A stretch of DNA of 59,536 nt, taken from positions 62,001 through 121,536 of the forward strand of contig CAUPSL010000102.1 of NCBI GenBank assembly GCA_963514005.1. The letters are read 5' to 3'. The translations under genes and the position numbers were made by a program. Source of the stretch: Raja brachyura (lineage: Eukaryota). Under the pieces are notes generated by a model. It did not search any database, was not told where the DNA came from, and saw nothing but the letters and a program-made list of their open reading frames with translations. Shown piece after piece: positions 548 through 52,305 of this stretch (positions are counted from its first letter, which is position 1; the number at the start of each line of letters is the position of its first letter).

Positions 548-3276
548 ACATAGAAACAGAGAAATTAGGTGTAGGAGTAGGCCATTCGGCCCTTCGAGCC
601 TGCACCGCCATTCAATATGATCATGGCTGATCATCCAACTCAGTATCCCATACCTGCCTTCTCTCCATACCCTCTGATCCCCTTAGCCACAAGGGCCACA
701 TCTAACTCCCTCTTCAATAAAGCCAATGAGCTGGCCTCAACTACCCTCTGTGGCAGAGAGTTCCAGAGACTCACCACTCCCTGTGTGAAAAAAGTCTTTC
801 TCATCTCAGTCTTCAAGGATTTCCCCCTTATCCTTAAGCTGTGACCCCCTTGCCCTGGACTTCCCCAACATCGGGAACAATCTTCCTGCATCTAGCCTGT
901 CCAACCCCCTAAGAATTTTGTAAGTTTCTATAAGATCCCCTCTCAATCTCCTAAATTCTAGAGAGTATAAACCGAGTCTATCCAGTCTTTCTTCATAAGA
1001 CAATCCTGATCCCAGGAATCAGTCTGGTGAACCTTCTCTGCATTCTCTCTATGGCAATAATGTCCTTCCTCAGATTTGGAGACCAGAACTGTACGCAATA
1101 CTCCAGGTGTGGTCTCACCAAGACCCTGTACAACTGAAGTAGAACCTCCCTGCTCCTATACCCAAATTCTTTTGCTATGAAAGCTAACATACCATTCGCT
1201 TTCTTCACTGCCTGCTGCACCTGCATGCCTACTTTCAATGACTTGTGTACCATGACACCCAGGTCTCACTGCATCTCCCCTTTTCCTAATCGGCCACCAT
1301 TTAGATAATAGTTTGCTTTCCTGTTTTTGCCACCAAAGTGGATAACCTCACATTTATCCACATTATACTGCATCTGCCAAACATTTGCCCGCTCACCCAG
1401 CCTATCCACGTCACCTTGCAGTCTCCTAGCATCCTCCCCACAGCTAACACTGCCCCCCAGCTTAGTGTCATCCGCAAACTTGGAGATATTGCCTTCAATT
1501 CCCTCATCCAGATCATTAATATATATTGTAAATAGCTGGGGTCCCAGCACTGAGCCTTGCGGTACCCCACTAGTCGCCACCTGCCATTTGGAAAAGGACC
1601 CGTTTAGTCCTACTCTTTGCTTCCTGTTTGCCAGCCATTTCTCTATCCACATCAATACTGAACCCCCAATACCATTTGCTTTAAGTTTGTATGCTAATCT
1701 CTTATGTGGGATCATGTCGAAAGCCTTCTGGAAGTCCAGACACACCACATCCACTGGTTTTCCCTTATCCACGCTACTAGTTGCATCCTTGAAAAATTCC
1801 ACAAGATTCGTCAGACATGATTTACCTTTCATAAATCCATGCTGACTTTGTCTAATTATTTCACCACTTTCCAAATGTGCTGTTATCCCATCTTTAATAA
1901 CTGACTCTGGCAGTTTCCCCACTACCGATGTTAGACTAACTGGTCGGTAATTCCCCATTTTCTCTCTCCCTCTATTTATCCTTTCCCTATTTTCTATTTT
2001 CCCTTTCCTTATTAAGCCCTTTGACCTCCTCTGCTGGATTCTGAATTTCTCCCAGTCCTCCGGTAGGTTGCTTTTTCTGGCAAATTTGTATGCCTCATCT
2101 TTTGTTTTTATACTATCCCTGATTTCCCTTGTTATCCATGGATGCACCACCTTCCCCGATTTATTCTTTTGACAAACTGGTACTTTTGTACTTCATCCAT
2201 GCAGTCTTTAAATACCTTCCTTTGCACTGTCAACCCTTTGAGAATCACCTGCCAGTCTATCTTGGCCAATTCACGTCTCATACCTTCAAAGTTACCTTTG
2301 TTCAAGTTCAGAACCCTTGTTTCTGACTTAATTTTGTCACTCTCCATCCTAATGAAGAACTCAACCATATTATGGTCACTCTTGCCCAAGGGGCCACGCA
2401 CAACAAGACTGCTAACTAACCCTTCCTCATTACTCAATATCCAGTCTAGAATAGCCTGCTCTCTCGTTGGTTCCTCTACATGTTAGTTTAGAAAACTATC
2501 CCGCATACGTTCCAAAAAATCCTCTTCCTCAGCACCCCTGCCAATTTGATTCACCCAATCTATATGTAGATTGAAGTCACCCATTATAACTGTTTTGCCT
2601 TTGTCGCACGCATTTCTAATTTCCTGTTTGATACCTTCCCCAACTTCACTACTACTGTTAGGTGGCCTGTACACAACACCCACCAGCGTTTTCTGCCCCT
2701 TAGAGTTTCGCAGCTCTACCCATACCGATTCCACATGCTCCAAGCTAATGTCCTTCCTTTCCATTGCGTTAATCTCCTCTCTAACCAGCATCGCTACCCC
2801 ACCTCCTTTTCCTTTCTCTCTATCCCTCCTGAATATTGAATATCCCTGGATGTTCAGCTCCCAGCCTTGGCCACCCTGGAGCCATGTCTCCGTGATCCCA
2901 ACTATATCATACTCATTAATAGCTATCTGCACGTTCAACTCATCCACCTTATTACGAATACTCCTTGCACTGAGACACAAAGCCTTCAGGCTTGTTTTTA
3001 CAACGCTCTTACCCCTTATACAATTATGTTGAAAAGTGGCCCTTTATGATTTGTGCCCTGGTTTTGTCTGCCTGCCACTTTTACTTTTCACCTTGCTACC
3101 TATTGCTTCTACCCTCATTTTACACCCACCTGCCCCTCTGCTCTTGTACCCATCCCCCTGCCACATTAGTTTAAATCCTCCCCGACAGCACTAGCAAACA
3201 CTCCCCCAAGGACATTGGTTCCATTCCAGCCCAGGTACAGACCAGTTTGTACTGGTCCCACCTTCCCCAGAACTGG
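548..3276 (-). mobile_element. CR1 (HER1-type) LINE, 5'-truncated, degenerate (ORF1 end, APE endonuclease, RT with internal deletion, 3' UTR)
   Basis: Minus-strand ORFs carry CR1 motifs: endonuclease (ARSIRNK, VGITETWL, VIMGDFN), RT ([26 protein letters not shown]) and [21 protein letters not shown]-type tail at ~548. Confidence 0.93.
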
Positions 3277-3985
3277 GGACAGGTGTGGTACATGGATAGG
3301 ACAGGTGTGGTACATGGATAGGACAGGTGTGGTACATGGATAGGCCAGGTGTGGTACATGGATAGGCCAGGTGTGGTACATGGATAGGCCAGGTGTGGTA
3401 CATGGATAGGCCAGGTGTGGTACATGGATAGGCCAGGTGTGGTACATGGATAGGCCAGGTGTGGTACATGGAATGGACAGGTGTGGTACATGGATGGGAC
3501 AGGTGTGGTACATGGATGGGACAGGTGTGTTACATGAATAGGCCAGGTGTGGTACATGGATATGCCAGGTGTGGTACATGGATGGGACAGGTGTGTTACA
3601 TGGATAGGACGGGTGTGGTGCATGGATAGGACGGGTGTGTTACATGGATGGGACTGGTTTGGTACATGGATAGGACAGGTGTGGTACATGGATAGGACAT
3701 GTGTGGTACATGGATGGGACAGGTGTGGTACATGGATGGGACAGGTGTGGTGCATGGATGAGACAGGTGTGGTACATGGATAGGACAGGTATGGTACATG
3801 GATAGGGCAGGTGTGTCACATGGATAGGACAGGTGTGTCACATGGATAGGACAGGTGTGTCACATGGATAGGACAGGTGTGTCACATGGATAGGACAGGT
3901 GTGTCACATGGATAGGACAGGTGTGTCACATGGATAGGACAGGTGTGTCACATGGATAGGACAGGTGTGGTACATGGATAGGACA
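3277..3985. repeat. 22-bp minisatellite (GGACAGGTGTGGTACATGGATA)n, ~32 units; ~2 more units at 498-551
   Basis: Direct tandem units visible. The array runs into a CR1 3' end at ~3985-4100. Confidence 0.95.
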
Positions 3986-4513
3986 TGTTTGGAGGGATAT
4001 GGACCAAAGGCGGGCAGGTGGGACTACAGCTGGGACATGTTGCCCGGTGTGGGCAAGTTGGGCCGAATGACCCATTTCCACACAGTATCACTCTACGACT
4101 CTATGACTCTAATTATGTGCTGGCCATTTCCAATTGAACAGACGCACCAAGCATCTTCCCACCTCTCCCAATCTGCTCTCCCCATGAATGGTCTATTTAC
4201 ATTATTATACTGTCTGTTTCCATGGCATTCAGCAGCCTCTACTACACAGCTCCGTGTGGCGTGTGTTTCTGCAGAGTGGACACATCAGGCCTGTACTTGC
4301 CATTCACACACTAGCTGGCATTTCCCGTTTCAGATTTCCACCATCCACGGGGTCTTTCCCTGTCATTATCACCACAGTTCCAGCACTTAAAGCTGGGAAG
4401 AGTCTGCTTGCCTCACAATTCACCATTTCTATCTTAAATATTTAAACCTCTCATCACACTGATGATTACGGGTGGCATTTCAGATTCTGGATCAAAGTGT
4501 ACAACATTGCTGC

Positions 4514-6331
4514 CAGACACGTGCCGTCAGGATAGGCAAGGTAGGCACTGCCTACCCTGACTAAAATTATAGCATAGTAATAACTAAATATAAATAATAA
4601 AGGCATGGGAGAATGATGCCTATGTAAGAGACCGATCTCTTAGGTAGGCATAATTCTCCGTGCCTTTCATCCGCAGCGCTTGTAACACGGGAAGCTCTGT
4701 GCAGCCCACGTGCCGTCAGCGCTGCCTGAAGCCGTCAGTTTCAAGCGGGGCTGAAGGCAGCAGAAATTCTGCCTTTGCTGCACTGCACATGCGCATCAGT
4801 CTACTGCGCATGCGCAGAGCTAGTTTCTTGGCGGGGTTTTAAACTATGGTTTGTCGTGTACCAATAATGTGGTAAGTACATTTTGTGTTTATGTTTTTAA
4901 ATACTGTATTTCCCGGGGTGTGGGGGTGGGGGGAGAGATCCTTTCACAGCGTTTGAGGGGTCTGGCCCGGGGTAAAGTTGCGGGGAGGGCACGAATTTTA
5001 TGAATGAGGGGTCGGGAGCAGCCACTTGCGACGCTCCTTGCACGGGGGCATGCAATGCCACCGCTCTGAGGCCGGGGGGGGGGGGGGGGGGGAAGAGGAG
5101 AGAGAGAAGTAGCTCGGGTGGCTGAACGGCCGCCTTGCCGGACAGCGGAACCAGCCGCCACCAAATGCCGGCTGATCTATATCGGTGAGACCAAGCGGAG
5201 GCTTGCCGATCGTTTCGCCGAACACCTCCGCTCGGTCCGCAATAACCAACCCGACCTCCCGGTGGCTCAGCACTTCAACTCCCCCTCCCATTCCGTATCC
5301 GACCTCTCTGTCCTGGGCCTCCTCCACGGCCAGAGTGAGCAACACCGCAAGTTGGAGGAACAGCACCTCATATTCCGCTTGGGGAGTCTGCATCCTCTGG
5401 GCTTAAACATTGAATTTTCTCAATTTTGTTAACCCTTGCTGCCTCCTCCCCTTCCCACCTCTCCCTCAGCCCTCGGGCCCTGGCATTCCCTCTCTCTATC
5501 TCTCCCCCACCCAAGTCGCACTAGCTTCTCATTTTCACACTACAAACAGCTTACAATGGCCTGTTTCCTTTATCATCGATACTTTTTTGCATATCTTTCA
5601 TTCATTGTTCTTTATCTCTCCACATCACCGTCTATATCTCTCGTTTCCCTGATCCCTAGCCAGTCTGTAGAAGGGTTTCAGCCCGAAACGTCGCCTATCT
5701 CCTTCGCTCCTTAGATGCTGCTGCACCCGCTGAGTTTCTCCAGCCTTTTGTGTACCCCCGCCACCTTAGCTCCTTATGCCGGTCCCCGCTCACCTCTGGC
5801 AACTCTCCGTCTAAAAACCTCTCTCCTACCACTCGCTGGCCTCACTCATGCCCTTAAATTCCAACAGCGCGATTGAGGTTACTCGGCTGTGGGAATTTAA
5901 GGATTTGCAGGAAGCCGCTGACATGAGCTCGGTTAACGGCAGGTGACAGGTGTTCCGACGGAGAGCACTGCTAAAGGTGAGCGGGCCGGCAGAAGGCGCT
6001 GAAGGGGTGGCCAGTTCTGCTGAAGGGTCCCGGTGGCCGCTCATACCAGAGCTGCTTCTATCCCCAGCTACGGTGTGTGGCTTCGCGCCCTACTCAACAC
6101 TCGTGCCCTCCCCACAACTTTACCCCTGGCACAGACTACACACGCTGTGAAAGGAACTGTTCCCCCAATTGGTCTAGGACTAGGAAGCCTTGGGCAAATT
6201 GAAATGTCACTGTCTTTCTTTCTTTATTTATTTATTTCTTTAACGGGGAGAACAATCTGCGCATGCGCGGTTTAGTTTTTTTAAAGCGGACTGAGAGCCT
6301 ACCCTGAGTAATTACTCACGGCACGTGCCTG
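4514..6331. mobile_element. Non-autonomous hAT-type DNA transposon, copy 1 (contains a nested Penelope fragment)
   Basis: TIRs CAG(A/G)CACGTGCCGT...ACGGCACGTGCCTG. Perfect 8-bp TSD ATTGCTGC at 4506-4513 and 6332-6339. Homologous copies at 39310 and 40644. No transposase ORF seen. Confidence 0.88.
5163..5757 (+). mobile_element. Penelope-like element 3' fragment (GIY-YIG C-terminus + pLTR/3' UTR)
   Basis: CRLIYIGETKRRLADRFAEH...GLN motif. Flanked by duplicated CCGCCACC (5155-5162, 5758-5765). Absent from the other two hAT copies. Confidence 0.9.
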
Positions 6332-6785
6332 ATTGCTGCGTGTCTGGGAGTTACATGGATCACAGACTGGGGAAGGGCAGCAGCTTTGTTTCTTTAAAGG
6401 ACATTTTTCAACTTGCTGGATTCCTTGGTGTGCGGGAGAGTGAAGGCAGAGTGTTCTGTGTACCCCTGACCTGTGTAATTAGTGGGAAAGGAAAGACAAC
6501 GAGAATATGTGGCTATTGAACTGCAGAGGCTAGTTTATACCGAAGGCAGACACAAAATGCTGGAACAACTCACTGGGTCAGGCAGAAGAATAGGTGATGT
6601 TTCCGGTCGAAAATATATGCAGCAGCTTTTATTATGCATTGAATCTTTCATATGAGCAATGTATCCAGACCAATGATATTTGGAAGAGTTCCAAAATATA
6701 ACAAAAGAATCACAATTGCTTTCTTTAAATCGCCAGCAGGAAAGATTCGACAAATATTCTGAAACTTAACCATTGTATTTTCTAG

Positions 6786-7133
6786 AGGAGTTCGCTGTGA
6801 TTGTGCCAGACTATCCGGTGGTGGCCATGGTGGGTGGAGATGCCGTGTTGGAATGTCAGAAGGTACCGGATACATCACTGGACGCTCTGGAGGTCCGATG
6901 GTTTACAACGAGCCCGGGGTCACCGGTACATTTATACACCGGCGGCCAGGACTGACCTGAGGTGCAGGACGGGGCTTACCGAGGGAGGACGGAGCTTATT
7001 CGGGAAGAATTTCCCCGTGGAACCGCATCGCTTCAACTGAAGAGGGTCAAAGTATCAGATGCTGGAATGTACACGTGTTCCATCAGCACCCCCACGTCCA
7101 GTCACCAGGCGGCGCTGCGGCTGCAGGTTGAAG
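6786..7133 (+). pseudogene. BTN: Butyrophilin-like IgV exon, copy 1, with in-frame stop (TGA 6953-6955)
   Basis: 348-nt phase-1 exon, tctag|...GAAG|gtgag. BTN IgV motifs VVAMVGGDAVLEC, EVRWF, YRGRTEL, SDAGMYTC. GAC TGA here versus GAC CGA in copy 2. Confidence 0.9.
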
Positions 7134-7251
7134 GTGAGTTCCTCTGGAGGCATAGAGTTCACACCAGGGTTTACGCCGGGAATGTCAGTAAGCTGCCCCC
7201 CAGACTGGGATTTTACTGGGAAGGTGAAGTTTCTCCCTTGCTTTGAATTGT

Positions 7252-13223: not shown

Positions 13224-13981
13224 TTAGAAATTGCATTAATTGCAAAGTGTAAAAAGAGTTGAGATACTGTATTATAATTTTGCTGCATGCCATTGTGGTA
13301 TATATCATGTCTTGATTGCTGAATATGTTTAGTTTGTGACTTTATTTGAAGCAGAAATAATATGTGAATGCTTCATTGAGCATAATTCCGACTAGTAACT
13401 ACGCACTTTCTCCGAGCGCATTATTGCATGCGGCATGCAAGCCGTCTGAAATGACCACCTAAACTGTCATTTGGCAACTTAAAAAGCTGCCAAGGTTGCC
13501 CGGCTGACAACAGGGAAAAAAAGTGAGAGCCCTGCAAGGTGTATAATATTTTTGACACTGTCACAGGCCTTTCTTACATATGCTGTCACAATGCACTGTA
13601 GTTTCTAAACAACGCTTCAGTAATTTTCATTGTCCTCCATTTCAGAATAATATTGTTTTAAGCCGATAACTCGACACTAGCACTGGCAATAAATAAATAA
13701 ATAAAGCACAGCTTTCCTGCCCCTCATCTCATTGCAAATGCTCGGCTGCAAATCGGTGCCAATCTGGTGGACCATCTTCCTCTAGTCGTGGGGGTGGGGG
13801 ATTGGGAGGGGCCTCACAAGTGGAACAGCCTAGGGCCTCTCTTCATCTAAATCCGGTCCTGGGCCCCGGCGTCCTCTGCTGCTCACTGACCCGGCACACG
13901 GAAAGCCCTTTCCATGTCAAGATACACATGTAACAATTGTTTTCACCGATTACATCCAGATTGCAGGATTTGGACTATAAG

Positions 13982-15210
13982 CATATAACCATATAACAAT
14001 TACAGCACGGAAACAGGACTTCTCTGCCCTTTCAGTCCGTGCCCACCATTTATTTTCCCCTAGTCCCATCCACCTGCACTCAGACCATACGCCTCCATTC
14101 CCTTCCCGTCCATATACCTATCCAATTTACTTTTAAATGTTAAAATCGATCCTACCTCCACCACTTCTGCTGGAAGATCATTCCACTCTCTGAGTAAAGA
14201 AGTTCCCCCTCATGTTACCCCTAAACTTCTGTTCCTTAATTCTCATGTCATTCCCTCTTGTTTGAATCTTCCCTACCCTCAATGGGAAAAGCTTATCCAC
14301 GTCAACTCTGTCTATCCCTTTCATCATTTTAAAGACCTCAATCAAGACCCCCCTTAACCTTCTGCGCTCCAAAGAATAAAGACCTAACTTGTTCAACCTT
14401 TCTCTGTAACTTAGTTGCTGGAACCCAGGCAACATTCTAGTAAATCTCCTCTGTACTCGCCCTATTTTGTTGACATCCTTCCTATAATTAGGCGACCAAA
14501 ATTGTACACCATACTCCAGAATTGGTCTTACCAATGCCTTGTACAATTTTAACATCACTTCCCTACTCCTATATTCAATGCTCTGAGTTATAAAGGCCAG
14601 CACACCAAAAGATTTCTTTACCACCCCATCTACATGCGATTCCACCTTCAGGGAACTGTGCACAGTTATTCCTAGATCCCTCTGTTCCACAGCATTCCTC
14701 AATTCCCTACCATTTACCATGTATTTCCTATTTTGATTTGTCATGCCAAGATGTAGCACTTCACACTTATCAGCATTAAACTCCATCTGCCATCTTTCAG
14801 CCCACTCTTCCAAATGGCCCAAATCTCTTTGTAAACTTTGAAAATCTACTTCATTATCCACAGCACCACCTATCTTAGTATCATCTGCATACTTACTTAT
14901 CCAATTTTCCACCCCATCATCTAGATCATTGATGCACATGACAAACAACAGTGGACCCAACACAGATCCCTGAGGCACCCCACTGGTCACCGGCTTCCAC
15001 CCTGACAAACAGCCATCCACCATTACTCTCTGGAATCTCCCATTCAGCCACTGTTGAATCCATCTTGCTACTCCGCCATTAACACCCAAAGATTGAACCT
15101 TCTTAACCAACCTTCCACGGGGAACCTTGTCAAAGGCCTTACTGAAATCCATATAGACAACATCCACTGCTTTACCCTCATCAATTTCCCTAGTAACCTC
15201 TTCAAAAATT
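13982..15210 (-). mobile_element. CR1 LINE (second subfamily, GTTATAT-type tail) starting just after a 10-nt IgC exon stub (13967-13976)
   Basis: RT ORF 14178-15272 ([25 protein letters not shown]). The upstream attgcag|GATTTGG matches the IgC acceptor at 17837-17850. Confidence 0.9.
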
Positions 15211-15306
15211 CTGGGGGTGTGGGGGGAGGGGGGTGTGTGGGGGTTCAGAAGCTGGATCAAAGTGTACAACAAAGTGAAGGCAGAGTGTTCTGTGTACCCA
15301 TGACCT

Positions 15307-15788
15307 ATTGAGCTCCAAGTTGTTACGAAGGCACCAGGACACCAGCCTGGTCACTTCCTGTCCGTAGGCAGATTCCTCCCCATCCTGGATGAGTCCAATC
15401 AGGGTTGTGTCGTCCGCAAACTTGAGAAGCTTGACAGGGGAGTCTGTGGAGGTGCAGTCATTGGTGTGGAGAGAATCGAGGAGAGGCGAGAGTACACAGC
15501 CTTGAGGTGCTCCTATGCTGAGGGTCTGCGGGGCTGAAATGTGCTTTTCCAGCCTCACATGCTGCTTCCTGTCTGTCACGAAGCTGGTGATCCACTGACG
15601 GAGGGGTTCAGGCACAGTCAATTTGGAGAATTTGTAGCTCTGGCACAATGGTGTTGAATGCACAGCTAAAATCCACAAACAAAATCCTCGCATAGGTCCC
15701 CTGGCAGTCTAGGTGCTGGAGGATGAAGTGCAGGACTAGGTTGACTGCGTCATCCACAGATCTATTGGCCCGATGTTCAAACTGCAAT
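15307..15788 (-). mobile_element. Rex1/Babar-type LINE, 5' half (inside the inverted segment)
   Basis: LQFEHRANRSVDDAV...IGAPQGCVLSPLL...LLKFADDTTLIGLI...RNNLELN. Confidence 0.85.
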
Positions 15789-16409
15789 CGGAATGTAATC
15801 GGTAAACACGATAGTTACACATGTATCTCGGCATGGAAAGGGCTTTCCGTGTGCTGGGTCAGTGAGCAGCAGATGACGCCGGGGCCTGAAGAGCCACAGA
15901 AAGAGCAGCGGTGGGAACTCCAACGATCCTTGGTTGGGTGACCGGGTACCGCCGCGTTACCGCCCCATCGCCTCGTCGTCACCTTCCCCTTCAGCTAACA
16001 ATGATCTGTTCTACATTTTACTTGAATCGCGTCCCCTTTGATTCATCTTTTTCCCACCTTACCCTTCCATATCTCTAGACTCCCTCTCCCATGATTCTCA
16101 GTCTTCAGATGGGTCTCGACCCGAAACGTCACCCATTCCTGCTCTCCACACATGCTGCCTGTCCCGCGGAGTTACTCCTGCATTTTATGTCTACATTCGG
16201 TGTAAACCTGCATCTGCAGTTCCTTCCCACACACAACCTCGCCGCTGCCATTCCGTTCCAGGCCGTGTCACTCCCAGCCTGTGCCGAGGCAGCGGTCAAC
16301 ATTGTCAGTAACCCTTGACCTTCCCAGTAAAATCCCAGTCTGGGGGGCAGCTTACTGACATTCCCGGTGTAAACCCTGGTGTGAACTCTATGCCTCCATA
16401 GGGACTCAC

Positions 16410-16757
16410 CTTCAACCTGCAGCCGCAGCGCCGCCTGGTGACTGGACGTGGGGGTGCTGATGGAACACGTGTACATTCCAGCATCTGATACTTTGACCCT
16501 CTTCAGTTTAAGCGATGCGTTTCCACGGGGAAACTCTTCCCGAATAAGCTCCGTCCTCCCTCGGTAAGCCCCGTCCTGCACCTCAGCTCGGTCCTGGCCG
16601 CCGGTGTATAAATGTACCGGTGACCCCGGGCTCGTTGTAAACCATCGGACCTCCAGAGCGTCCAGTGATGTATCCGGTACCTTCTGACATTCCAACACGG
16701 CATCTTCACCCATCATGGCCACCACCGGATAGTCCGGCACAATCACAGAGAACTCCT
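16410..16757 (-). CDS. BTN: Butyrophilin-like IgV exon, copy 2: open frame, intact splice sites, but inverted relative to the rest of the gene
   Basis: 348-nt exon tctag|AGGAG...GAAG|gtgag on minus. EFSVIVPDYPVVAMMGEDAVLEC...YRGRTELIREEFPRGNASLKL...DAGMYTC, with no stop. Confidence 0.88.
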
Positions 16758-17083
16758 CTAGAAAATACAATGGTTAAGCTTCAGAATATTTGTAGAATCT
16801 TTCCTGCTGGCGATTTAAAGAAAGCAAATGTGATTATTTTGTTATAGTTTGGAACTCTTCAATAATGAAAATATTTTGTTATAGTTTGGAACTCTTCAAT
16901 AATGAAAGATTCAATAATGCATAACGAAAGCTGCTGCATATATTTTCGACCGGAAACATCACCTATCCCTCTGCCTGACCCAGTGAGTTGTTCCAGCATT
17001 TTGTGTCTGCCTTCGGTACAAACTAGCCTCTGCAGTTCAATAGCCACATATTCTTGTGGACTTTCCTTTCCCACTAATTAAAC

Positions 17084-17836
17084 AATGCTCTTAAGACGGT
17101 GGAATTAAATGTAGACTTTAGGAGAGCTCCCCCTCCCCTCACACCACTCACCATCAACAACACCACAGTCACATCTGTGGAGTCCTTTAAATTCCTGGGA
17201 ACCATCATCTCCAAGGGCCCTAAATGGGGGGGCCATCATCGACGCGACAGTCAAAAAGGCCCAAAAGAGGATGTACTTCATGCGGCTGCTGTGGAAGCCC
17301 AATCTGCAACAGGCAATGATGGTCCAATTCTATGATGGTCCTCACCTTCTCCATCATGTTCTGCTTTGGCTCAGCCACTGAGCCCGACATCCGGAGGCCG
17401 CAGCGAATTGTCGATCAGCTGAGAAGGTAGTTGGCTGCAACCTTCCCTCCGTTGATGAACTGTAAACTGCAAGGGCCAGGAAACGAGCGGGTAAGATCAT
17501 CTCTGATGCCTCTCACCCTGGCAACAAACTATTTGATTCACTTCCCTCTGGAAGGCGACTGCAGACTGCCAAAGCTACAACAGCCAGACATAAAAACAGC
17601 TTTTTTCCATGAGTAGTAGCTCTGCTCAATAACCAAAAATCTGTAGCCTCCTTTTGCTCTGGTATTTTATTTAATGCACATGTTTATGATAATGTGTTAT
17701 TATTAATGTTTAATGTTTTATGTGTCATTCCAAACTGTCACTGTATGGCATGTTGTCCATTTTGGGCGGAGCACCTAGGCAAATTCCTTGTATGTGAATA
17801 CTTGGCCAATAAACGTATTCATTCATCCATTCATTC
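17084..17836 (+). mobile_element. Rex1/Babar-type LINE, 3' half, with AATAAA and (CATT)n tail
   Basis: ALKTVELNVDFRR...VESFKFLGTIIS continues the RNNLELN end of the 15307-15788 piece. Confidence 0.85.
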
Positions 17837-17843
17837 ATTGCAG

Positions 17844-18128
17844 GATTTGGCCTCCGGCCCTGGATCCGCTTGGAGGAAAGCACCACGCAAGGAGTGCGTG
17901 TGGTGTGTAAGTCGAATGGATGGTTTCCCAAGCCGGTGATACGGTGGCTGGATGGGAGTGGACAAGATGTAACAGCACGGTCTGACACACTGTTCACTGA
18001 GGACTCCAGCGGGCTGATCACTGTCCACAGTCACATCGATGTCACAAGTGATTCTGTGAACAGGTATTCCTGTTTCATACGAAGTAGGTCAACGGGGAAA
18101 ACACGAGAGGCCCATCTCCAGATATCAG
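17844..18128 (+). CDS. BTN: Butyrophilin-like IgC exon
   Basis: 285 nt, phase 1-1, ttgcag|...CAG|gtacg. GFGLRPWI...VVCKSNGWFPKPVIRW...YSCFIR...LQIS, open frame. Confidence 0.9.
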
Positions 18129-18250
18129 GTACGTGGGAACCTGGGAAACATTCTACAAAAGCGAGTTCTAAACTAACTTTCACTGCGCAAACCAGCATCT
18201 GTAGTTCCTTCCTGTTGCTGTTACTGATCTATTTTCATTCACCAATATAG

Positions 18251-18370
18251 ATGAGTTATTTCCTAAAACCAACCCTTGGCTGCTGGTTTTCTGGGCGTTT
18301 GTGGCCCTCGTGGTAACGGCTGCTGCTTTCAATATAATGTTACACAGAAAAGAAGATAAAATGATTAAAG
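18251..18370 (+). CDS. BTN: Butyrophilin-like transmembrane exon
   Basis: 120 nt, atag|...AAAG|gtgag. DELFPKTNPWLLVFWAFVALVVTAAAFNIMLHRKEDKMIK (hydrophobic span followed by basic residues). Confidence 0.88.
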
Positions 18371-22867: not shown

Positions 22868-22894
22868 AACTGCAGCTGTTTCTCTCTTTGGAAG
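22868..22894 (+). CDS. BTN: Butyrophilin-like 27-nt cytoplasmic exon (ELQLFLSLE)
   Basis: Polypyrimidine tract ttttcag|, GAAG|gtaag, phase 1-1. Size is typical of BTN heptad exons. Confidence 0.7.
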
Positions 22895-29040: not shown

Positions 29041-29286
29041 CTCTAATCCTCTCAACTCTATGCCAATTTGCTCTCAGCTCAAGTAGCAATCCAGAGATTA
29101 TTACCTTCTTGGTTCTGCTGTACAATTTGGTATCTAGCTGTTAAAATTCAGGATTGAACCCAGGTCCCTGGTGCTGTGAAGAGCTGCGTCGCTGTGCCCC
29201 CCTCTTTGTTCCTTGCTCCCCGCTGTCATTATTTTATTTCCAATTTTAGTTGCAGTGAAAATGTGAAATATTTCTGTTTTGTGCAG

Positions 29287-29313
29287 GATACGAGGAAATG
29301 GAACGATATTATG
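29287..29313 (+). CDS. BTN: Butyrophilin-like 27-nt exon preceding B30.2 (GYEEMERYY)
   Basis: tttgtgcag|...TATG|gtaag, phase 1-1. Paralogous copy at 35347-35373. Confidence 0.72.
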
Positions 29314-30759
29314 GTAAGTACAGGCCGATGTACAATTCAGTAAAACTATCTGGTGTGTGTTACGTTGGCTAAAGCGCAGATCATGAATAGTTCAATATAC
29401 CGTAGAACAGTACATCACAAGAACAGGCCATTTGGCCCACAATATCTGTGCATAACATGTTGCGAAGACCAGCTCTTATCTGCCTGCACATAATCCATAT
29501 CCCTCCATTCCCTGTATATCCAGGTGTCTATCTAAAATGCCACTATCGTATCTGCCTCCACCACCACCCCTGGCAGCACATTCCAGGTGCTCCCAACACT
29601 GGGAAAAACACTTGCCCCGCACAAATCCTTTAACCTTTGCTCCTCTCACCTTAAAGCTATGTCCTCAAGTCTTTGATTATTTTCACCCTGGGAAAAAGGC
29701 TCTGACTGTCCACCTGTTCTATGCCTGTCATAATTGTATCCACTTCTGCCTCAACCACCTCTTCCAACAGCTTGTTCCATAATCCCATCACCCTTTGTGT
29801 AAAAGAGTTCCCTCTCTGGTTCCTGTTAACTCTACTCCTCCCCCCCCCCCCCCACTTTAATCCTATGGTTGTTGATGCCCCAACTCTGCGTTTACCCGAT
29901 CTATCCCTCTCACGATATTGTTCACCTCTTTCTGATCAACTCTCTTCCTCCTGCGCTACGAGGAATAAAGTCCTAGCCTGCTCACCCTCTCCCTATTGCT
30001 CAGGCCCTCTAGTCCTGGCAACATCCTCGTGAATCTTATCTATACCCTTTACAGCTTGACAACGTATTTCCTATAACATGGTGCCCAGAAGTGAACACAA
30101 CACTCCAAGTGTGGCTTCACCAACATCTTATATAACCGCAACGTGACCTCCCAACCTCTATATTCAATACTGTGACTGATGAAGGCCAATGTGCTGAAAC
30201 ACTTTATGAGCACACTATCTACCTGTGACACCACTTTCAAGGAACTATGTTACTGCACTCCTACATTAAATTTATATTTAATCCTGTATTAAATACCATC
30301 AACCATTCCTCAGCTCATCTGCCCAACCGATCAAGATCCTGCTGTAATTTTTGACATCCATCTTCACTATCCACAATACCACCCGCTTTTGTGTCATCTG
30401 CAAACTTGCTAATTATGCCATGTACATTCTCACCCAGATCATTGATATAAGCACAGAACCATGAGGCACACCACTAGTCACAGGCCTCCAGTCCGGAAAA
30501 CAACCTTCCCTCATCACCCTCTGCTTCCCTCCATAAAGCCAATGTTCTATCCAATTAGCTATCGCTTCTTGGATCCAATGCGCTCCAACCTTCCTCTGGT
30601 TCTACGTTTCTCACCACACCTTCAATTCTTGTCAGAATCCATCATTCTCATCCCTTTGTCTTCAGCTCATCACCTCCGGCCTCGGTTCCTGTCTCCACCC
30701 TTCTCTCCCCACCTGGTCATTCTACCAATCACCCCGCCTTACCTGAACCACGTGTGTTG

Positions 30760-30950
30760 CTCCACCCCCCCCCCCACCTGAACCCACCTGAGTTACTCCA
30801 CCTCCCCGCCTCACCTGAACCCACCTGTCTTGCTCCACCCTCCCACCTTCACCTGAACCCACCTGTCTTGCTCCACCCCCTCACCTGAACCCATTTGTCT
30901 TGCTCCACCCCCTCACCTGAACCCACTTGTATTGCTCAAACCCCTCACCT
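30760..30950. repeat. Short degenerate tandem repeat (~30-35 bp; CCTCACCTGAACCCACCTGTCTTGCTCCACC), ~5-6 units
   Basis: Units directly visible. Confidence 0.75.
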
Positions 30951-31318
30951 CTGCACAGATGCCGCTCAATTTATGCACGCACTGACAGAGCATTATCAGT
31001 TTTGCCCGGTAAATATGTGTACGTGTGTATGTATGTACACAGACAGGAAAACAGAGAGGCACTCTCATGCACACACACACACACTCACAGACAAACAGAG
31101 TAAAGTATTTTGCTGCACCCCTTCCCGTCTCTTTCTGCGGTAAGAGCCGAGGGAAGCATGCGAATGAGGAAGCGTGACAAAAACTCCGTGACAGATTGTG
31201 TTGTCCACCCGATGTGGTTGGGGTGAAACCCCGGGCAAGGGTTCAGTTGTCCGCCCGCCTGTGCCCGAGTCTCCCCCCGACCCCCGGGGACTCTGTGATT
31301 CTCTGCTTCTCCCCCCAG

Positions 31319-31851
31319 TCTCCGTCACCCTGGATGTGGAAACAGCGCATGCGCGGCTCCAGGTGTCTGAGGATCGGAAGAGGGTGAGAGTGACCCTGAC
31401 CGAGAGGAGTCTCCCTGACACCGGGAAGAGGTTTACAGTCAGTCGGTGTGTGTTGGGATCGGAGGGATTCACATCGGGGAGACATTACTGGGAGGTGGAG
31501 GTGGCGGGGAGTCGGGGCTGGAGACTGGGAGTCGCCGCAGAGTCTGTGGAGAGGAAGAGACAGTTCGCACTGACCCCGGAGACTGGAGTCTGGAGCATCA
31601 AGCGGTGGGATGACGAGTTTGATGCAGTCACCTCCCCTCGATCCCCTCTCCCCGCCCGTCCCATCCCCGGGAGGGTGGGAGTTTATCTCAGTTACGAGTC
31701 CGGGACAGTTTCATTTTACGACGCGGACACCAAGTCCCATCTCCACACCTTCACTGGGAACACATTCACGGAGAAACTTTATCCTCTCTTCTGGCCTTGG
31801 CTTACGTACGACTGGATGACAATCTGCTCCGGTTCTGTTCCGGGTGAGTAA
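31319..31851 (+). CDS. BTN: B30.2 (PRY/SPRY) terminal exon of the butyrophilin-like gene, intact
   Basis: ccccag|TC TCC GTC ACC CTG GAT, phase 1. VTLDVETAH, FTSGRHYWEVEV, RVGVYLSYESGTVSFY, LHTFT, EKLYPLFWP; stop at 31849-31851. Confidence 0.92.
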
Positions 31852-35100: not shown

Positions 35101-35346
35101 GTTACGGAAAGTTAACTCTATGCCAATTTGCTCTCGGCTCAAGTAGCAATCCAGAGATTATTACCTTCTTGGCTCTGCTGTACAATTTGGTATCTACTGT
35201 TCAAATTCAGGATTGAACCCAGGTCCCTGGAGCTGTGAAGAGCTGCGTCACTGTGCCCCCCTCTCTTTGTTCCTTGCTCCCGCTGTCATTATTTTATTTC
35301 CAATTTTAGTTGCAGTGAAAATGTGAAATATTTCTGTTTTGTGCAG

Positions 35347-35373
35347 GGCACGAGGATGTGGAATGATATTATG
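35347..35373 (+). pseudogene. BTN: Duplicate 27-nt BTN exon with CGA>TGA stop
   Basis: GG CAC GAG GAT GTG GAA TGA TAT TAT G versus GA TAC GAG GAA ATG GAA CGA TAT TAT G; flanks homologous to 29055-29400. Confidence 0.75.
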
Positions 35374-37099
35374 GTAAGTACAGGCTGATGTACAATTCAA
35401 TAAAACCATCTGGTGTGTGTTATGTCGGCTATAGCGCAGATCATGAATTAGTTCAATATAACGTAGAACAGGACAGCACAAGAACAGGCCATTCGGCCCA
35501 CAATGTCTGTGCAGAACATGGTGCGAAGACCAGCTCTTATCTGCCTGCACATAATCCATATCCCTCCATTCCTTGTATATCCAGGTGTCTATCTAAAATG
35601 CCACTATCGTATCTGCCTCCACCACCACCCCTGGCAGCACATCCCAGGTGCTCCCCACACTGTGAAAAATAACTTGCCCCGCATAAATCCTTTAACATTT
35701 GCCTCTCTCACCTTAAAGCTATGTCCTCGAGCCTTTGATTATTTTCACCCTGGGAAAAAGATTCTGACTGTCCACGCGTTCTATGCCTGTCATAACTGTA
35801 TCCACTTCTGCCTCAACCACCTCTTCCGACAGCTCGTTCCATAATCCCATCACCCTTTTTGTAAAAGAGTTCCCTCGCAGGTTCCTGTTAACTCTACTCC
35901 CCCCCCCCCCCTTTATTTAAATCTATGATTGTTAATTCCCCTACTCTGGGGACGAGACTCCGATGTGCGTTTACCCGATCTATTCCTCTCACGATACTGT
36001 ACACCTCTATAGGATCACCCCTCATCCTCCTGCGCTATGAGGAATAAAGTACTAGCCTGCTCATCCTCTCTCTATAGCTCAGGCCCTCGAGTCCTGGCAA
36101 CATCCTCATGGATCTTATCTGTACCCTTTACAGCTTGACAACATATTTCCTATAACATGGTGCCCAGAACTGAACACAACTCTCCAAATGTGGCTTCACC
36201 AACGTCTTATATATCCGTAACGTGACCTCCCAACTTCTATACTCAATACTGTGACTGATGAAGGCCAATGTGCTGAAAGACTATATGAGCACACTATCTA
36301 CCTGTGACGCCACCTTCAAGGAACTATGTTACTGCACTCCTACATTAAGTTTGTATTTAATCCTGTATTAAATACCATCAACCATTCCTCAGCCCATCTG
36401 CCCAACCGATCAAGATCCTGCTGCAATTTTTGACAACCATCTTCACTATCCACAATACCACACACACTGAGCCAGCATTACCAGATTTGCCCGGTAAATA
36501 TATGTACGTGTGTGTGTATGTACACACAGACAGGCACACACTAACACATACACTAAAACACACACTAACACGCACACAGTGACACACACACAGACAGGCA
36601 CACTCACACTCACTCACACTCATACACCCTCACACTCTCTCACACTCTCTCACACTAACACACATTCACACTCTAACACACACTCACATGCACACACACA
36701 CACACTCATAGATAAACAATGAAGTATTTTGCTGCACCCCTTCCCCTGTCTCTTTCTACGGAGGGAGCAGAGGGAAGCATGAGAATGAAGAAGTGTCCAG
36801 ACCCTAGACGTGTTCTGTCATTTCCTCACACACGTGTTGCCTGACCCGCGGACTTCCTCCAGCTGTTTGTTTTTATTTCTCACCGTTAACTCGGTTCTCC
36901 TCCACTTCCACCACAGTTAGGAAACTCCGGGGAACATGTCCATGGGATGTTGGTGGGCTGGAAAACAGCCGGGATATCGTCCAGTTGTCCGCCCGCCTGT
37001 GCCCGAGGCCTAGCGGCCTCTCCCCCGGTCCCGGGGCCTCGCTGCCCGAGTCTCCCCCCGACCCCCGGGAACTCTCTGATTCTCTGCTTCTCCCCCCAG

Positions 37100-37360
37100 T
37101 CTCCGTCACCCTGGATGTGGAAACAGCGGGTCCGCGGCTCGAGGTGTCTGAGGATCGGAAGAGGGTGAGACTGACCGGGACCTGGAGGAGTCTCCCTGAC
37201 ACCAGGAAGAGGTTTACACACTGGCCGTGTGTGCTGGGATTGGAGGGATTCACATCGGGGAGACATTATTGGGAGGTGGAGGTGGCGGAGATTCGATTGT
37301 GGAGTCTGGGAGTCGCCGCAGAGTCTGTGAAGAGGATGATACAGGTCAAACTGACCCCAG
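37100..37360 (+). pseudogene. BTN: Second B30.2 exon, truncated after roughly half the domain by a CR1 insertion/deletion
   Basis: VSVTLDVETAGPRLEVSEDRK...FTSGRHYWEVEV...KLTPE, then a 19-bp local duplication and minus-strand CR1. Confidence 0.85.
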
Positions 37361-37379
37361 AGGATGATACAGGTCAAAC

Positions 37380-39309: not shown

Positions 39310-40467
39310 CAGGCACGTGCCGTCAGGGTAGGCAAGGTAGGCACTGCCTACCCTGACTAAAATTATGAAATGGGAATTATTAAATATAAATAGTAAAGGC
39401 ATGGGAGAATTATGCCTATGTAGGAGACTGATCTCTTAGGTAGGCATAATTCCCTGTGCCTTTCACCCGCAGCGCTTGTGACACGGGAAGCTCTGTGCAG
39501 CCCCCGTGCCGTCAGCGCTGCCTGAAGCCGTCAATTTTAATCGGGGCTGAAGGCAGCAGAAATCCTGCCTTTGTAGCACTGCGCATGCGCAACATCATAC
39601 TGCGCATGCGCATCAGTCTACTGCGCATGCGCAGCGCAAGTTTATTGGCGGGGTTTTCAACCATGGTTTGTCGTGTCCCAATGATATGGTAAGTACATTT
39701 TGTGATTTATTTTTTTTAATACCGTATTTGCCAAGGTGTGGGGGGGTGTGGGAGTCGGAGTGGGGAGAGAGCTCCTTTCACAGCGTTTGGGGAGTCTGGC
39801 CCGGGGTAACGTTGCGGGGAGGGCACAAATGTTATGAATGAGGGGTCGGGGGCATCCACTTGCGACGTTCCTTGCAAGGGGGCTTGCAATTACACTGCTC
39901 TGAGGCCGGGGGGGGGGTGGGGGGGAGAGAGAGCGAGAAGTAGCTCGAGCGGCCGCCGGGCCGGACAGCGGAACCAGCCGCCACCTTAGCTCCAGAACCA
40001 CCCGCTCACCTCTGGCAGCTCTCCATCTAAAAACCTCTCTCCTGCCGCTCGCTGGCCTCACTCATGTCCTTAAATTCCAACAGCGCGATTGAGGTTACTC
40101 GGCTGTGGGAATTTAAGGATTTGCAGGAAGCCGCTGACATGAGTGAAGTCGGCGAACAGCAGGTGACAGGTGTTCAGACGGAGAGCACTGCCAAAGGTGA
40201 GCGGGCCGGCAGAAGGCGCTGAAGTGGTGGCCAGTTCAGCGGTGGCCACTCTCCGAGCTGCTTCTATCCCCAGCTACAGTGCGTGGCATCGCACCCGGAG
40301 AGCTGCGGCAGCGGTGAGGCAGTGAAGATTCAGCACTTTGTGATAAATCACTGTTTTTATTTATTTATTTATTTAACGGGGAGAACAATCTGCGCATGCG
40401 CGGTTTACATTTTTTTTTAAAGCGGACTGAGTGCCTACCCAGAGTAATTACTCACGGCACGTGCCTG
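39310..40467. mobile_element. Non-autonomous hAT-type element, copy 2
   Basis: Same TIRs; imperfect 8-bp TSD ACTCATAT/ACTCAAGT; sits next to a (TA)n(TG)n microsatellite at 39217-39302. Confidence 0.85.
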
Positions 40468-40486: not shown

Positions 40487-40619
40487 NNNNNNNNNNNNNN
40501 NNNNNNNNNNNNNNNNNNNNNNNNNNNNNNNNNNNNNNNNNNNNNNNNNNNNNNNNNNNNNNNNNNNNNNNNNNNNNNNNNNNNNNNNNNNNNNNNNNNN
40601 NNNNNNNNNNNNNNNNNNN
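40487..40619. other. Assembly gap (133 N)
   Basis: Run of N. Confidence 1.
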
Positions 40620-40643
40620 ACACATTCACAAATACACACACAC

Positions 40644-42067
40644 CAGCCACGTGCCGTCAGGGTAGGCAAGGTAGGCACTGCCTACCCTGACTAAAATTAT
40701 AATATAGTCATTACTAAATATAAATAATGAAGGCATGGGAGAATTATGCCTATGTAAGAGACCGATCACTTACATAGGCATAATTCTCCGTGCCTTTCAT
40801 CCACAGCGCTTGTAGCACGGGAAGGTCTGTGCAGCCCACGTGCCGTCAGCGCTGCCTGAAGCCGTCAGTTTCAAGCGGGGCTGAAGGCAGCAGAAATTTT
40901 GCCTTTGTAACACTGTGCACGCGCATCATCCTACTGCGCATGCGCAGCGCTAGTTTCTTGGCGGGGTTTTCAAATATGGTTTGTCAATATTTTAAGTGTA
41001 TGTTAGGAAACAGCGAGAGAAGAATGGTGCTAGTGTACCAATGATGTGGTAAGTTCATATATTGGTAATGTTTTTAAATATCGTATTTCCCAGGGGGTGG
41101 GGGGAGACCTCCTTTCCAAGCGTTTGGGGAGTCTGGCCCGGGGTAAAGTTGCGGGGAGGGCATGAATGTTATGAAGGAGGGGATCGGGATACTGCCACTT
41201 GCGACGCTCCTTGCAAGGAGGCGTGGAATTCCACCGCATTGAGGCCGGGGGGGGGGGGGGGGGAGAGAAGTAGCTTGAGTGGCTGAGCAGCCGTCCGCCA
41301 CCTTAGCTCCTTCTGCCGGTCCCCGCTCACCTCTGGCAGTTTTCCGTCTAAAAACCTCTCTCCTGCCGCTCGCTGGCCTCACTCATGTCCTTAAATTCCA
41401 ACAGCGCGTTTGAGGTTACTCGGCTGTGGGAATTTAAGGATTTGCAGGACACCGCTGACATGAGCGAAGTCGGCGAACAGCAGGTGACAGGTGTTCCGAC
41501 GGAGAACACTGCCAAAGGTGAGCGGGCCGGCAGAAGGCACTGAAGTTGCGGCCAGTTCTGCTGTTGGGTCCCGGTGTCTGCTCGTAGCTCCCCGAGCTGC
41601 TTCTATCCCCAGCTACAGTGCGTGGCTTCGCGCCCGGAGAGCTGCGATAGTTGTGAGTGAGTTACTGGCAGTATCCCTGACACCCTCCTTCTCAACACTC
41701 GTGCCCTCCCCACAACTTTACCACTGGCACAGACTCTTCACACGCTGTGAAAGGAAATGTTCCCCCAATTGGTCCCTTGAACAAGTGTTGTCATTCAATA
41801 AGATGACAACTGATTTAACTAATCCCTGTGCTCCCGCTTTTCCCACCATCTCTCCATCTTTCCATCTGCCCTTACCCTTCACCCTCCCCCCCTCCCCCAA
41901 TTCAGTAATTCAGAATAAAGGAGACGAGGAAGCCTTAGGCAAATTGAATTGTCACTGATTTTATTTTTAAATGTATTTAACGGAGAGAACAATCTGCGCA
42001 TGCGCGGTTTAATTTTTTTAAGCGTACTGAGTGCCTACCCTGACTAATTACTCACCGCACGTGCCTG
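40644..42067. mobile_element. Non-autonomous hAT-type element, copy 3
   Basis: TIRs CAGCCACGTGCCGT / CCGCACGTGCCTG; flanked by ACACACAC on both sides within a CA microsatellite. Confidence 0.85.
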
Positions 42068-43265
42068 ACACACACACACATATACACACATACATATATA
42101 CACACACACGGATATATATACACACATACAGCACACATGACTATATACACACACATAACTATATATACACACACATATCCACACAACACACATAACTATA
42201 TACACACACATAACTATACACGCACACACACATAACTATATACACACACTATAACACACCTCTCTCTCTCATATTCCATCTGCTTGCATTTGTCATTCGA
42301 TTGGTTGAAGTGGAAAGGCTGAGCGCCCTCTCAGAGCCACAGCTCCCTGTCCTGAATCCGCTGTTTTAATTTAAAGATTTCGTGGAAACCTTAGTGCCAA
42401 CTTTTCCACACAGAGGGTGGCGGGTGTATGGAACTAACTGCCGGGGGAGATCGTTGAAGCGGGTACTATAACAACATGTAAACTATATTTGGACAGAGGA
42501 CACACAAAATGCTGGAGCGAAGGAGATAGGCAACGCTTCGGGCCGAAACGTTGCCTATTTCCTTGGCTCCATAGATGCTGCTGCACCCGCTGAGTTTCTC
42601 CAGCATTTTGTGTACCCTCGATTTTCCAGCATCTGCAGTTCCTTCTTTAACACATATATTTGGACAGACACGTGGATTGGAAATGTTTAGCGGGATATGG
42701 GGCAAACACAGGCAAACGGAACCAGTGGAAGCAAGACAGGGTGAGAGGAATGGTTGATAGATTAGCAGAAGCTTACACTGACGGAGAGCGTGGACAAACG
42801 ACAACTGTTGCACATTTCTGTTTGGGTATATTTTACATCTGAGTCACGTGATTGACTTCGTGAAGACCCCGCCAGCACGCATGCGCGACATATGGTTGCT
42901 CGCATTTGCAGTCGACAGCTGGGGGAGGGAGTGCTCTTCCCCAACTACACCTTCAAAAGAAGCTCTAAGGTAAGTTTTACTAACCTTGAGCTGGTTGTCC
43001 CTGTAAGCTTAGTTACTCTACTTACAGGTGCGATGGAGAAAAAAGGGAAGGCGAAAGCTTCCAAGAGCCGCGGGACTTCGGAGGGAAGTCAGCGGCCGAT
43101 ATCCTCGGAGCTGCCCGCAACACCGGCAGCACCCGCTCTGCGGGCGGGGAAAAAGTCGCGGTAGTTGGGCAGCCCTGCGGAGTTGGCAGGGCCCGACTCT
43201 CCACCACAGCAGGGGATAGAGCTGCATGGTGGTCGGAGCACCGCGCAGAAGCAGGGTAGTATAGA

Positions 43266-44920
43266 GTGTTAAAGAAGGAACTGCAGATGCTGGAAAATCG
43301 AGGGTACACAAAAGGCTGGAGAAACTCAGCGGGTGCAGCAGCATCTAAGCAGCGTCCAGTCACATGGACGTCCGGTCACTCCACACCTCCATCCCCCACC
43401 AGGATGGTCTCAAAGCCCTCCGGTACTTCCTCGACCAGAGGAGCAACCCATACCCATCCACTGACACCCTCCTCCGCCTAGCGGAGTTGGTCCTTACCCT
43501 CAATAACTTCTCTTTTGACTCCTCCCATTTCCTCCAAATAGAACGCGTAGCTATGGGCACACGCATGGGCCCTAGCTACGCCTGCCTCTTTGTCGGGTAC
43601 GTCGAACAATCCTTGTTCTCTGCGTACCAGGGCCCCACCCCCGACCTTTACCTCCGTTACATTGACAACTGCTTTGGTGTCACCTCCTGCACCCACACAC
43701 AACTGACTGACTTCATCCATTTCACCACCAACTTCCATCCGGCACTCAAATACACTTGGACCATTTCGACATTTCCCTACCATTCCTTGACCTCACCATC
43801 TCTATTGCAGGTGATACACTCCTGACTGACATCCAATACAAACCAACTGACTCCCACAGCTACCTGGACTACTCTTCCTCCCACCCTGCTTCCTGTAAGG
43901 ACTCCATCCCCTATTCCCAATCCCTCCGTCTACGCCGCATCTGCTCCCAGGATGAGGTATTCCACACCAGGTCATCACAAATGTCGCCCTGGTCCTCACC
44001 TTTCACCCCACCAGCCAGCGCATACAACACATAGTCCTCCGCCAGTTTCGCCACCTCCAACGTGACCCCTCCACTCGCCACATCTTCCCATCTCCCCCCG
44101 TCTGCCTTCCGCAAAGACCGCTCCCTCCGCAACTGCCTTGTCAATTCTTCCCTTCCCTCCCAATCCACCCCTTCCCCGGGCACTTTCCCTTGCAACCGCA
44201 AGAGATGCTACACTTGTCCCTTCACCTCCCCCATCCACTCCTTTCAGGGACCCAAGCAGTCCTTCCAGGTCCAACAGAGGTTCACCTGCACCTCCTCCAA
44301 CCTCATCTACTGCATCCGTTGCTCCAGATGCCGGCTGATCTATATCGGTGAGACCAAGCGGAGGCTTGGCGATCGTTTCGCCGAACACCTCCTCTCGGTC
44401 CGCAATAACCAACCCGACCTCCCGGTGGCTAAGCACTTCAACTCCCCCTCCCATTTCGTATCCGACCTCTCGGTCCTGGGCCTCCTCCACGGCCAGAGTG
44501 AGCAACACCGCAAGTTGGAGGAACAGCACCTCATATTCCGCTTGGGGAGTCTGCATCCTCTGGGCTTAAACATTGAATTTTCTCAATTCTGTTAACCCTT
44601 GCTGCCTCCTCCCCTTCCCACCTCTCCCTCAGCCCTCGGGCCCTGGCATTCCCTCTCTCGATCTCCCCCCCACCCAAGTCGCACTAGCTTCTCATTTTCA
44701 CACTACAAACAGCTTACAATGGCCTGTTTCCTTTATCATCGATACTTTTTTGCATATCTTTCATTCATTGTTCTTTATCTCTCCACATCACTGTCTATAA
44801 TCTCTCGTTTCCCTGATCCCTGACCAGTCTGAAGAAGGGTCTCGACCCGAAACGTCGCCTATCTCCTTCGCTCCTTAGATGCTGCTGCACCCGCTGAGTT
44901 TCTCCGGCCTTTTGTGTATT
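43266..44920 (+). mobile_element. Penelope-like element (Neptune-type Cys-rich linker) nested in DIRS gag; RT + GIY-YIG + pLTR, with inverted pLTR piece at the 5' end
   Basis: MDVRSLHTSIP, AMGTRMGPSYA, YLRYIDN, CNRKRCYTC, NLIYCIRC..IYIGET. 14-bp duplication CAGGGTAGT(A/G)TAGA at 43252-43265 and 44921-44934. Confidence 0.92.
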
Positions 44921-47480: not shown

Positions 47481-47889
47481 ACGCAATTTGAAATGAATTG
47501 TTTCAGGAAAAGCTCCATCCGGCCCACACTCAAGCCGAAATTTGCAGGGTTGTGCAAAGCCTCTACCACACCACCGCCCAGGCAGCTGTTCGGGGAGGAC
47601 CTACCTAAACAGGTCAAGGTGTTGGATGAGGAGGCCAAAGCAGTCGAACTGATGAAACCTCTGTCATCAACCACGCCACAGGCGTATCAGAGACACCATC
47701 CGTACCCTAACTCCAAGCCTCGGGGACAACCGGATAGGGCACCGAGAGCTTACCCACCGACCGCTCCTCATCAGTAGAAGCCTTCTTTAGGGCAGGGCCA
47801 ACAGAGGCCAGCATGGAAGATGCGCCAAAACCCCACCCCAGCAACACAACGTCCACCAAAAGCCCAGAACACCAAGCCCGCCAGTAACC

Positions 47890-52009: not shown

Positions 52010-52305
52010 AGACAATAGGTGCAGGAGTGGGTTATTCGGCCCTTCGAGCCAGCGCCGCCATTCACTGTGATCGTGAATGATCATCGCCAATCAGTACCCC
52101 GTTCCTGCCTTCTCCCCATATCCCCGACCGCTATCTCCAAGCTCTCTCTTGAAAGTATCCAGAGAACTCCACAGACTCACCACTCTCTGTGAGAAAAAGT
52201 TTATCCTCGTCTCCGTTCTAAATGCCTTACTCCTTATTCTTAAACTGTGGCCCCCAACATCGGGAACATGTTTCCTGCCTATAGTGTGTCCAAGCCCTTA
52301 ATAAT
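52010..52305 (-). mobile_element. CR1 3' fragment
   Basis: Reverse complement of CR1 3' UTR and ORF2 end. Confidence 0.75.

Follow-up and report, generated by a model that had tools for sequence, protein, structure and literature searches.

At a butyrophilin locus of the skate Raja brachyura, the only open IgV exon lies antisense to the rest of the gene. Is this a true inversion or a fault of the assembly, how could it have come about, and what would a gene so arranged still make? We addressed these questions in a 59,536-nt stretch of genomic DNA (the window; features in Table 1), for which an earlier note had proposed a recent inversion in an otherwise intact gene.

Table 1. Features of the locus, in window coordinates
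Feature	Position	Strand	Remarks
Unit A, paralogous intron and IgV exon region	6439..7229	+	aligns with back-flipped unit B over 804 nt (93.4%)
V-A, sense IgV exon (348 nt)	6786..7133	+	canonical AG/GT; TGA at codon 56 (6953-6955)
Unit A V-C intron end, acceptor AG, IgC stub from 13967	13862..13975	+	cut by presumed CR1-like repeat
Presumed CR1-like repeat at unit A/unit B junction	13982..15211	-	multi-copy in self-BLAST; unit B homology resumes at 15244
Inverted segment	15307..17086	.	core 15310-17083; flanked by inverted 3-bp duplication ATT/AAT
LINE 5' half, 5'-truncated, RT fragment	15307..15781	-	inside inversion; Pfam RVT_1, E=4.8e-7
Original IgC acceptor (5' copy of the LINE's 7-nt TSD)	15782..15788	-	in P0007, intron end leads to IgC without LINE
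V-B, open IgV exon (348 nt), antisense to the gene	16410..16757	-	V-set, E=1.7e-13; 103-105/115 aa identical to skate BTNs
LINE 3' half	17084..17843	+	AATAAA at 17808, CATT-type tail, 3' TSD copy at 17837-17843
IgC exon	17844..18128	+	open; PF22705, E=2.6e-19, above cut-off; BTN type
Transmembrane exon	18251..18370	+	open; 36-37/39 aa identical to skate BTNs
First 27-nt juxtamembrane exon	22868..22894	+	AG/GT, in frame
Second 27-nt juxtamembrane exon	29287..29313	+	AG/GT, in frame
B30.2 (PRY-SPRY) exon	31319..31851	+	open to stop; PRY and SPRY; best PDB matches BTN3A3/BTN3A1
Dead tandem cassette: second 27-nt exon (35347-35373) and truncated second B30.2 (37100-37362)	35347..37362	+	in-frame stop in the 27-nt exon

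A butyrophilin locus with two IgV units

The exons downstream of the flipped segment (IgC, transmembrane, two of 27 nt, and B30.2) are in frame and have AG/GT ends throughout. The IgC domain is of the butyrophilin (BTN) type, and the transmembrane, short juxtamembrane and B30.2 exons follow it as in a butyrophilin; what the locus lacks are a leader exon within the window and an open IgV exon in sense orientation. The best relatives of the antisense exon, V-B, are skate butyrophilin-like proteins from Amblyraja, Rhinoraja and Leucoraja (87-90%), and the best single-domain PDB matches of the IgV domain are, by sequence likeness, MOG, BTNL8 and BTNL3. Skate butyrophilins are multi-copy, with at least three Amblyraja and at least six Leucoraja gene models. 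The window is closely similar to the butyrophilin 1A1-like genes P0001, P0044 and P0045 (IgV ~90%, IgC 86-88%, transmembrane segment 92-95% identical) and has the same exon series as P0045, including the tandem cassette of 27-nt and B30.2 exons; the models of all three genes, however, have a leader and an open sense IgV exon, and the window has neither. A V-set domain is present in all nine IgC relatives found among 83 candidates searched, and none of three candidates proved to be a stand-alone short IgV relative.

Two units of intron and IgV exon stand in tandem before the one IgC-transmembrane-B30.2 set, an arrangement that may have arisen by partial duplication or by a deletion that fused two paralogs. 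Tandem V exons are also found in the gene models of relatives, three in P0001 and two in P0002. The sense exon of unit A, V-A, has the same donor as V-B and a near-identical acceptor, and differs from it at nine positions, seven of them non-synonymous, including the premature stop; V-B is the sole open IgV exon at the locus, as the earlier note had it. Unit A has a further 28-nt match at 4479-4506, and its intron end resembles that of unit B (88.6% over 105 nt), leading into an IgC stub that hits a stop after three codons. The upstream intron of unit B ends at the intervening repeat, which we take to be CR1-like. According to the available text on the human deletion polymorphism BTNL8*3 (PMC3729544), that structural variant likewise lies within tandem butyrophilin-like duplicates, and the layout of units A and B could be such a fusion; BTNL8*3, however, is a 56-kb deletion with a confirmed fusion protein that contains an IgV domain, whereas the skate variant is an inversion.

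Breakpoints, sequencing runs and origin of the inversion

The breakpoints of the inversion can be placed to the base: 15306 is the last base of the left flank, and 17083 that of the flipped intron. When the segment 15310-17083 was flipped back by script, unit B aligned to unit A in a single 804-nt HSP (93.4%, E=0.0) that spans the left breakpoint and rebuilds the intron of the uninverted unit. At the other end, the inversion splits the reverse transcriptase (RT) frame of a LINE, which ends with LELN on the minus strand at 15307, resumes on the plus strand at 17084 and forms one open stretch after re-flipping. The triplets ATT (15307-15309) and AAT (17084-17086) constitute an inverted 3-bp duplication, one base of which may belong to either the intron or the LINE; the paralogous intron lacks the 3 bp, and other copies of the LINE, seen as loose contig ends among the matches listed, have a single AAT. 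With the segment restored, V-B, IgC, transmembrane, both 27-nt and B30.2 exons are open over 445 codons to the natural stop. All of this agrees with what had been claimed for the locus, and a skate relative points the same way: the Leucoraja model P0007, which has no LINE, follows the order of back-flipped unit B, so the ancestral state is the uninverted one. The 1.78-kb inversion is real.

In line with this, the right junction recurs in other sequencing data. We compared contigs of four of the 22 listed runs (X1, X5, X3 and X7), which are not on record as RNA. Record 4 of X1 (113 nt, depth 33) equals 17025-17137, with no other letters and no gaps, and reaches more than 31 nt beyond the right junction in both directions. 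Among the matches listed, none of the four runs has a record that bridges the left junction, and X5, X3 and X7 have none that bridges either. X1 is unlikely to be the source of the window, because it contains a fraction of 0.64 of the sampled words and because, over 1429 nt of its non-repeat records (those listed), there are 11 differences from the window, five of them around the transmembrane exon. A flip present only in the window's assembly is therefore very unlikely: the region is repeat-rich and the matches listed include no left-junction contig, but the two breakpoints correspond reciprocally, base for base, and a depth-33 contig from a run that differs elsewhere reproduces the right junction exactly, for which misassembly is largely refuted. 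The earlier note's own counter-scenario, that reads would support only the non-inverted orientation, fails at the right junction, and for the left the matches listed hold nothing either way. That the event is recent, one of the options the note gave, is not established, given that X1 shares the junction despite these differences. The depth of X1 at the junction is 33, against 89-150 in its neighbours, which, although depth does not equal copy number, hints that most V/C copies in X1 are without the inversion junction.

The five differences around the transmembrane exon fall within ~100 nt (18247-18342); at four of them, all four runs have the other letter. Two alter a residue, and there the window agrees with the Amblyraja and Leucoraja proteins. 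The cluster possibly reflects a divergent haplotype or gene conversion. V-B itself carries the substitution V15M, where all four runs likewise have the other base.

The LINE has an RT domain, a 7-nt TSD and a tandem tail, and we take it to be Rex-like (Rex1/Babar). It inserted exactly at the IgC acceptor of unit B, so that its tail and 3' TSD copy now provide the acceptor region, with an AATAAA 36 nt upstream of the IgC exon. Its 5' junction is bridged by record 1 of X1, and its junction with the IgC exon by record 13 of X3, a run with a different organism label. Contigs of X5 and X7 stop exactly at 15782, perhaps because of a branch between presence and absence of the LINE. Since one break lies inside the LINE, the inversion is the younger of the two.

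That break, and the fact that the locus is an immune gene, could bring to mind a programmed or element-driven flip, through RAG activity at cryptic signals, inverted-repeat recombination or twin-primed retrotransposition. RAG cuts next to a heptamer motif, and no heptamer-like CAC word adjoins either break; self-BLAST revealed no inverted repeats of at least 60 nt flanking the breaks, as recombination between them would call for. Twin priming would not yield a flipped piece such as this one, which contains host intron, an exon and the 5' TSD of the LINE, and whose left flank is V-B's own intron. We regard an origin of this kind as very improbable.

Instead, staggered breaks followed by end-joining likely produced the inversion in the germline. 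A short inverted duplication at both ends and an uninverted order in the outgroup are both found here. As far as the available text of PMC1885836 goes, staggered-break inversions carry an inverted duplicate of breakpoint sequence at either end and lack inverted repeats at the breaks, which is the same pattern; those inversions, however, are chromosomal and their duplications much longer. The 3 bp fit staggered breaks, but until an unflipped B allele is seen they could also represent inverted microhomology. Closer in scale is the inversion of DMD exon 50, where, from what is accessible of PMC4303224, both breaks are intronic and the whole exon comes to lie antisense, as does V-B; that case involved flanking deletions and 2-bp microhomology, whereas the skate locus lost no sequence at the breaks and carries the inverted 3-bp duplication. 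Inversion of a single exon within a gene is listed as a class of event in the part of PMC13484493 available.

Null copy, spare exon or IgV-less chain

The claim that the gene is otherwise intact did not hold. Scans from ATG to donor and in six frames revealed no leader exon in the window, where the 19-aa leader that is identical in seven skate proteins reaches a best ungapped score of 22 (self-score 91) and nowhere has more than 7 of its 19 residues identical; a leader exon may lie upstream of base 1. In addition, a stop-bearing V-A and a truncated IgC stub precede the inversion, the IgC acceptor is occupied by the LINE, and of the two cassettes of 27-nt and B30.2 exons the second is broken.

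The two tandem cassettes span 29054-31581 and 35114-37362, and of 87 codons in their B30.2 copies, 20 show non-synonymous and 4 synonymous differences. In the Leucoraja model P0045 both cassettes are open, which is why such cassettes could serve as alternative terminal sensors.

The first downstream set is indeed open, over 992 coding nt with canonical splice sites, and the earlier note had taken this absence of lesions as a sign that the event is recent, polymorphic or tolerated. We modelled lesions over these 992 nt with 3.9% of weighted substitutions leading to a stop and an assumed 0.05-0.10 frameshifts per substitution. Under neutrality, the probability of finding no lesion is 0.54-0.65 at 0.4% divergence and 0.29-0.43 at 0.8%, and falls to 0.01-0.04 only at 3%. 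Because intact exons are expected by chance at 0.4-0.8% divergence (P ~0.3-0.65), their openness is weak evidence of tolerance.

Our verdict is that of an ordinary exon-inversion allele within a birth-and-death family. The window's haplotype is probably a null copy, its remaining sense IgV exon bearing a stop that default splicing would take in. An upstream leader, if it exists, would be spliced to V-A by default, and translation would end at codon 56 with five exon junctions still ahead, so that the mRNA would be expected to undergo nonsense-mediated decay; alternatively, the copy may not be transcribed at all. The antisense splice sites of V-B would now be ignored, by analogy with the inverted DMD exon, and intact receptors would then come from other copies of the family. 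In the DMD case, the inverted exon 50 is missing from the mRNA, as stated in the accessible text of PMC4303224; for the skate locus our evidence is genomic. V-deleted human BTN3A on its own fails to reach the cell surface, according to what is available of PMC10665462. Against a null copy speak the open first downstream set and the V-less reading frame, which is open over 329 codons without the leader. Eight weak candidates for cryptic plus-strand exons were found in the flipped segment.

Because the contigs of X1 and X5 over codon 56 are open and tandem V exons recur in relatives, two other readings deserve weighing. In the first, the inversion silenced only a redundant IgV exon, so that an open V-A on other inverted haplotypes would still give an ordinary single-V butyrophilin, and the V-A stop of the window would be later and private, or a base error. 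X1 carries the junction, yet its V contig (record 2, 392 nt, depth 150) runs unbranched and open over codon 56, as does a single contig of X5 (record 20); judging from this contig continuity, X1 seems to lack the V-A stop allele of the window. A redundant V exon would account for both the open downstream exons and the sharing of the inversion between samples. On the other hand, five sites that distinguish V-A from V-B lie within the span of the codon-56 contig, and X1 and X5 have the V-A state at none of them, so that these samples may lack unit A altogether; the junction and the supposed open V-A are, moreover, known from separate contigs, and since the window's own haplotype keeps its stop, this reading mostly alters the history. 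We consider it unlikely. We gave no weight to contig ends beside V-A/V-B difference sites (16705 in X1, 16591 in X7, 16314 in X1 and X5), because a branch on either side can end a contig. In an X1-type sample, the inverted copy would either have an open upstream V exon, and the inversion would be harmless, or have no V exon, and splicing from leader to IgC would be the default.

The latter leads to the second reading, in which a leader-IgC-transmembrane-B30.2 chain reaches the surface beside an intact paralog and lends it its own B30.2 domain. The earlier note had offered a null allele and an IgV-less receptor side by side; the V-A stop favours the former, while the latter overlooked V-A, which must be skipped as well despite its normal splice sites, and presupposes a leader that was not found in the window. 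Its argument from exon phase is correct in that every exon is of phase 1 and a frame without V is open, and the junction is common to another sample. Chains of this kind have precedents that serve as models: in the text available to us, BTN3A2 or BTN3A3 rescues V-deleted BTN3A1 to full activity (PMC10665462), and Skint9 is described without an IgV domain (PMC6017450). Yet V-deleted BTN3A1 is artificial and requires a full-length partner, every one of the nine IgC relatives found among 83 candidates has a V domain, and the AATAAA of the LINE lies shortly before the IgC exon. Nor is the BTN3A1 pocket conserved. According to the part of PMC4303140 available, the basic phosphoantigen pocket of BTN3A1 comprises H351, H378, K393, R412, R418 and R469; in the skate B30.2 domain, read by hand against BTN3A3 R351H (6j0g), we find H351>S, K393>A (beside a gap), R412>D and R469>W, with R418 kept, so that four of five checked residues are replaced and little remains of the pocket expected of a BTN3A1-type phosphoantigen sensor. 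We hold an IgV-less receptor to be rather improbable here. The fuller version, in which a shared, long-standing inversion allele gives a natural IgV-less chain that, paired with intact paralogs, contributes a different, fast-diversifying B30.2 sensor, seems to us quite improbable.

The pocket also bears on gamma-delta T cells, with which the earlier note had connected the IgV domain. From the accessible text of PMC12841164, butyrophilins are class-specific with many lineage duplications, squamates without gamma-delta TCRs retain them, and their interactions have been characterised in few mammals only. Because of this class-specificity, the squamate case and the replaced pocket residues, a TCR-contact role for the skate IgV domain would be an analogy with mammals.

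Significance and other elements in the window

Skate butyrophilin alleles or natural IgV-less butyrophilins of cartilaginous fish are not reported in the open-access literature among the matches listed. As far as the available parts of the sources go, single-exon inversions (PMC4303224, PMC13484493), variants of butyrophilin duplicates (PMC3729544) and the IgV-less Skint9 (PMC6017450) are already in print. What the locus would add is a cleanly resolved exon inversion that helps to kill one copy of a skate immune family in expansion; it also cautions that gene models for this family have to reckon with IgV exons that are flipped or bear stops. If one species has both carriers and non-carriers, the allele would be a natural knock-down with which to probe the link between butyrophilins and gamma-delta T cells in cartilaginous fish, a test that the redundancy of a multi-copy family would weaken. 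Were a V-less chain expressed and a partner to rescue it, this would represent a natural split of sensing and binding roles, a cartilaginous-fish counterpart to the division of labour of engineered V-deleted BTN3A1.

The window contains other elements as well. Three of them (4517-6329, 39314-40466 and 40647-42064) are related, have imperfect terminal inverted ends that match, and look like a non-autonomous DNA transposon; one sits in the upstream intron of unit A, and an assembly gap of 133 N (40488-40620) separates two of these transposon-like copies. A 22-nt minisatellite lies upstream of unit A (3276-3992). Further downstream, at ~42850-52010, there is a degenerate element, presumably DIRS-like, with RT-like and recombinase-like stretches recognised by eye, which is broken by other repeats and has an 80-nt inverted repeat in the vicinity of 51709-52008. 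Beyond it, on the minus strand, follow two CAMSAP CKK-domain exons (Pfam PF08683; 53330-56286), and the intron between them houses a 1.9-kb telomere-like, CCCCAA-rich minisatellite (53682-55544).
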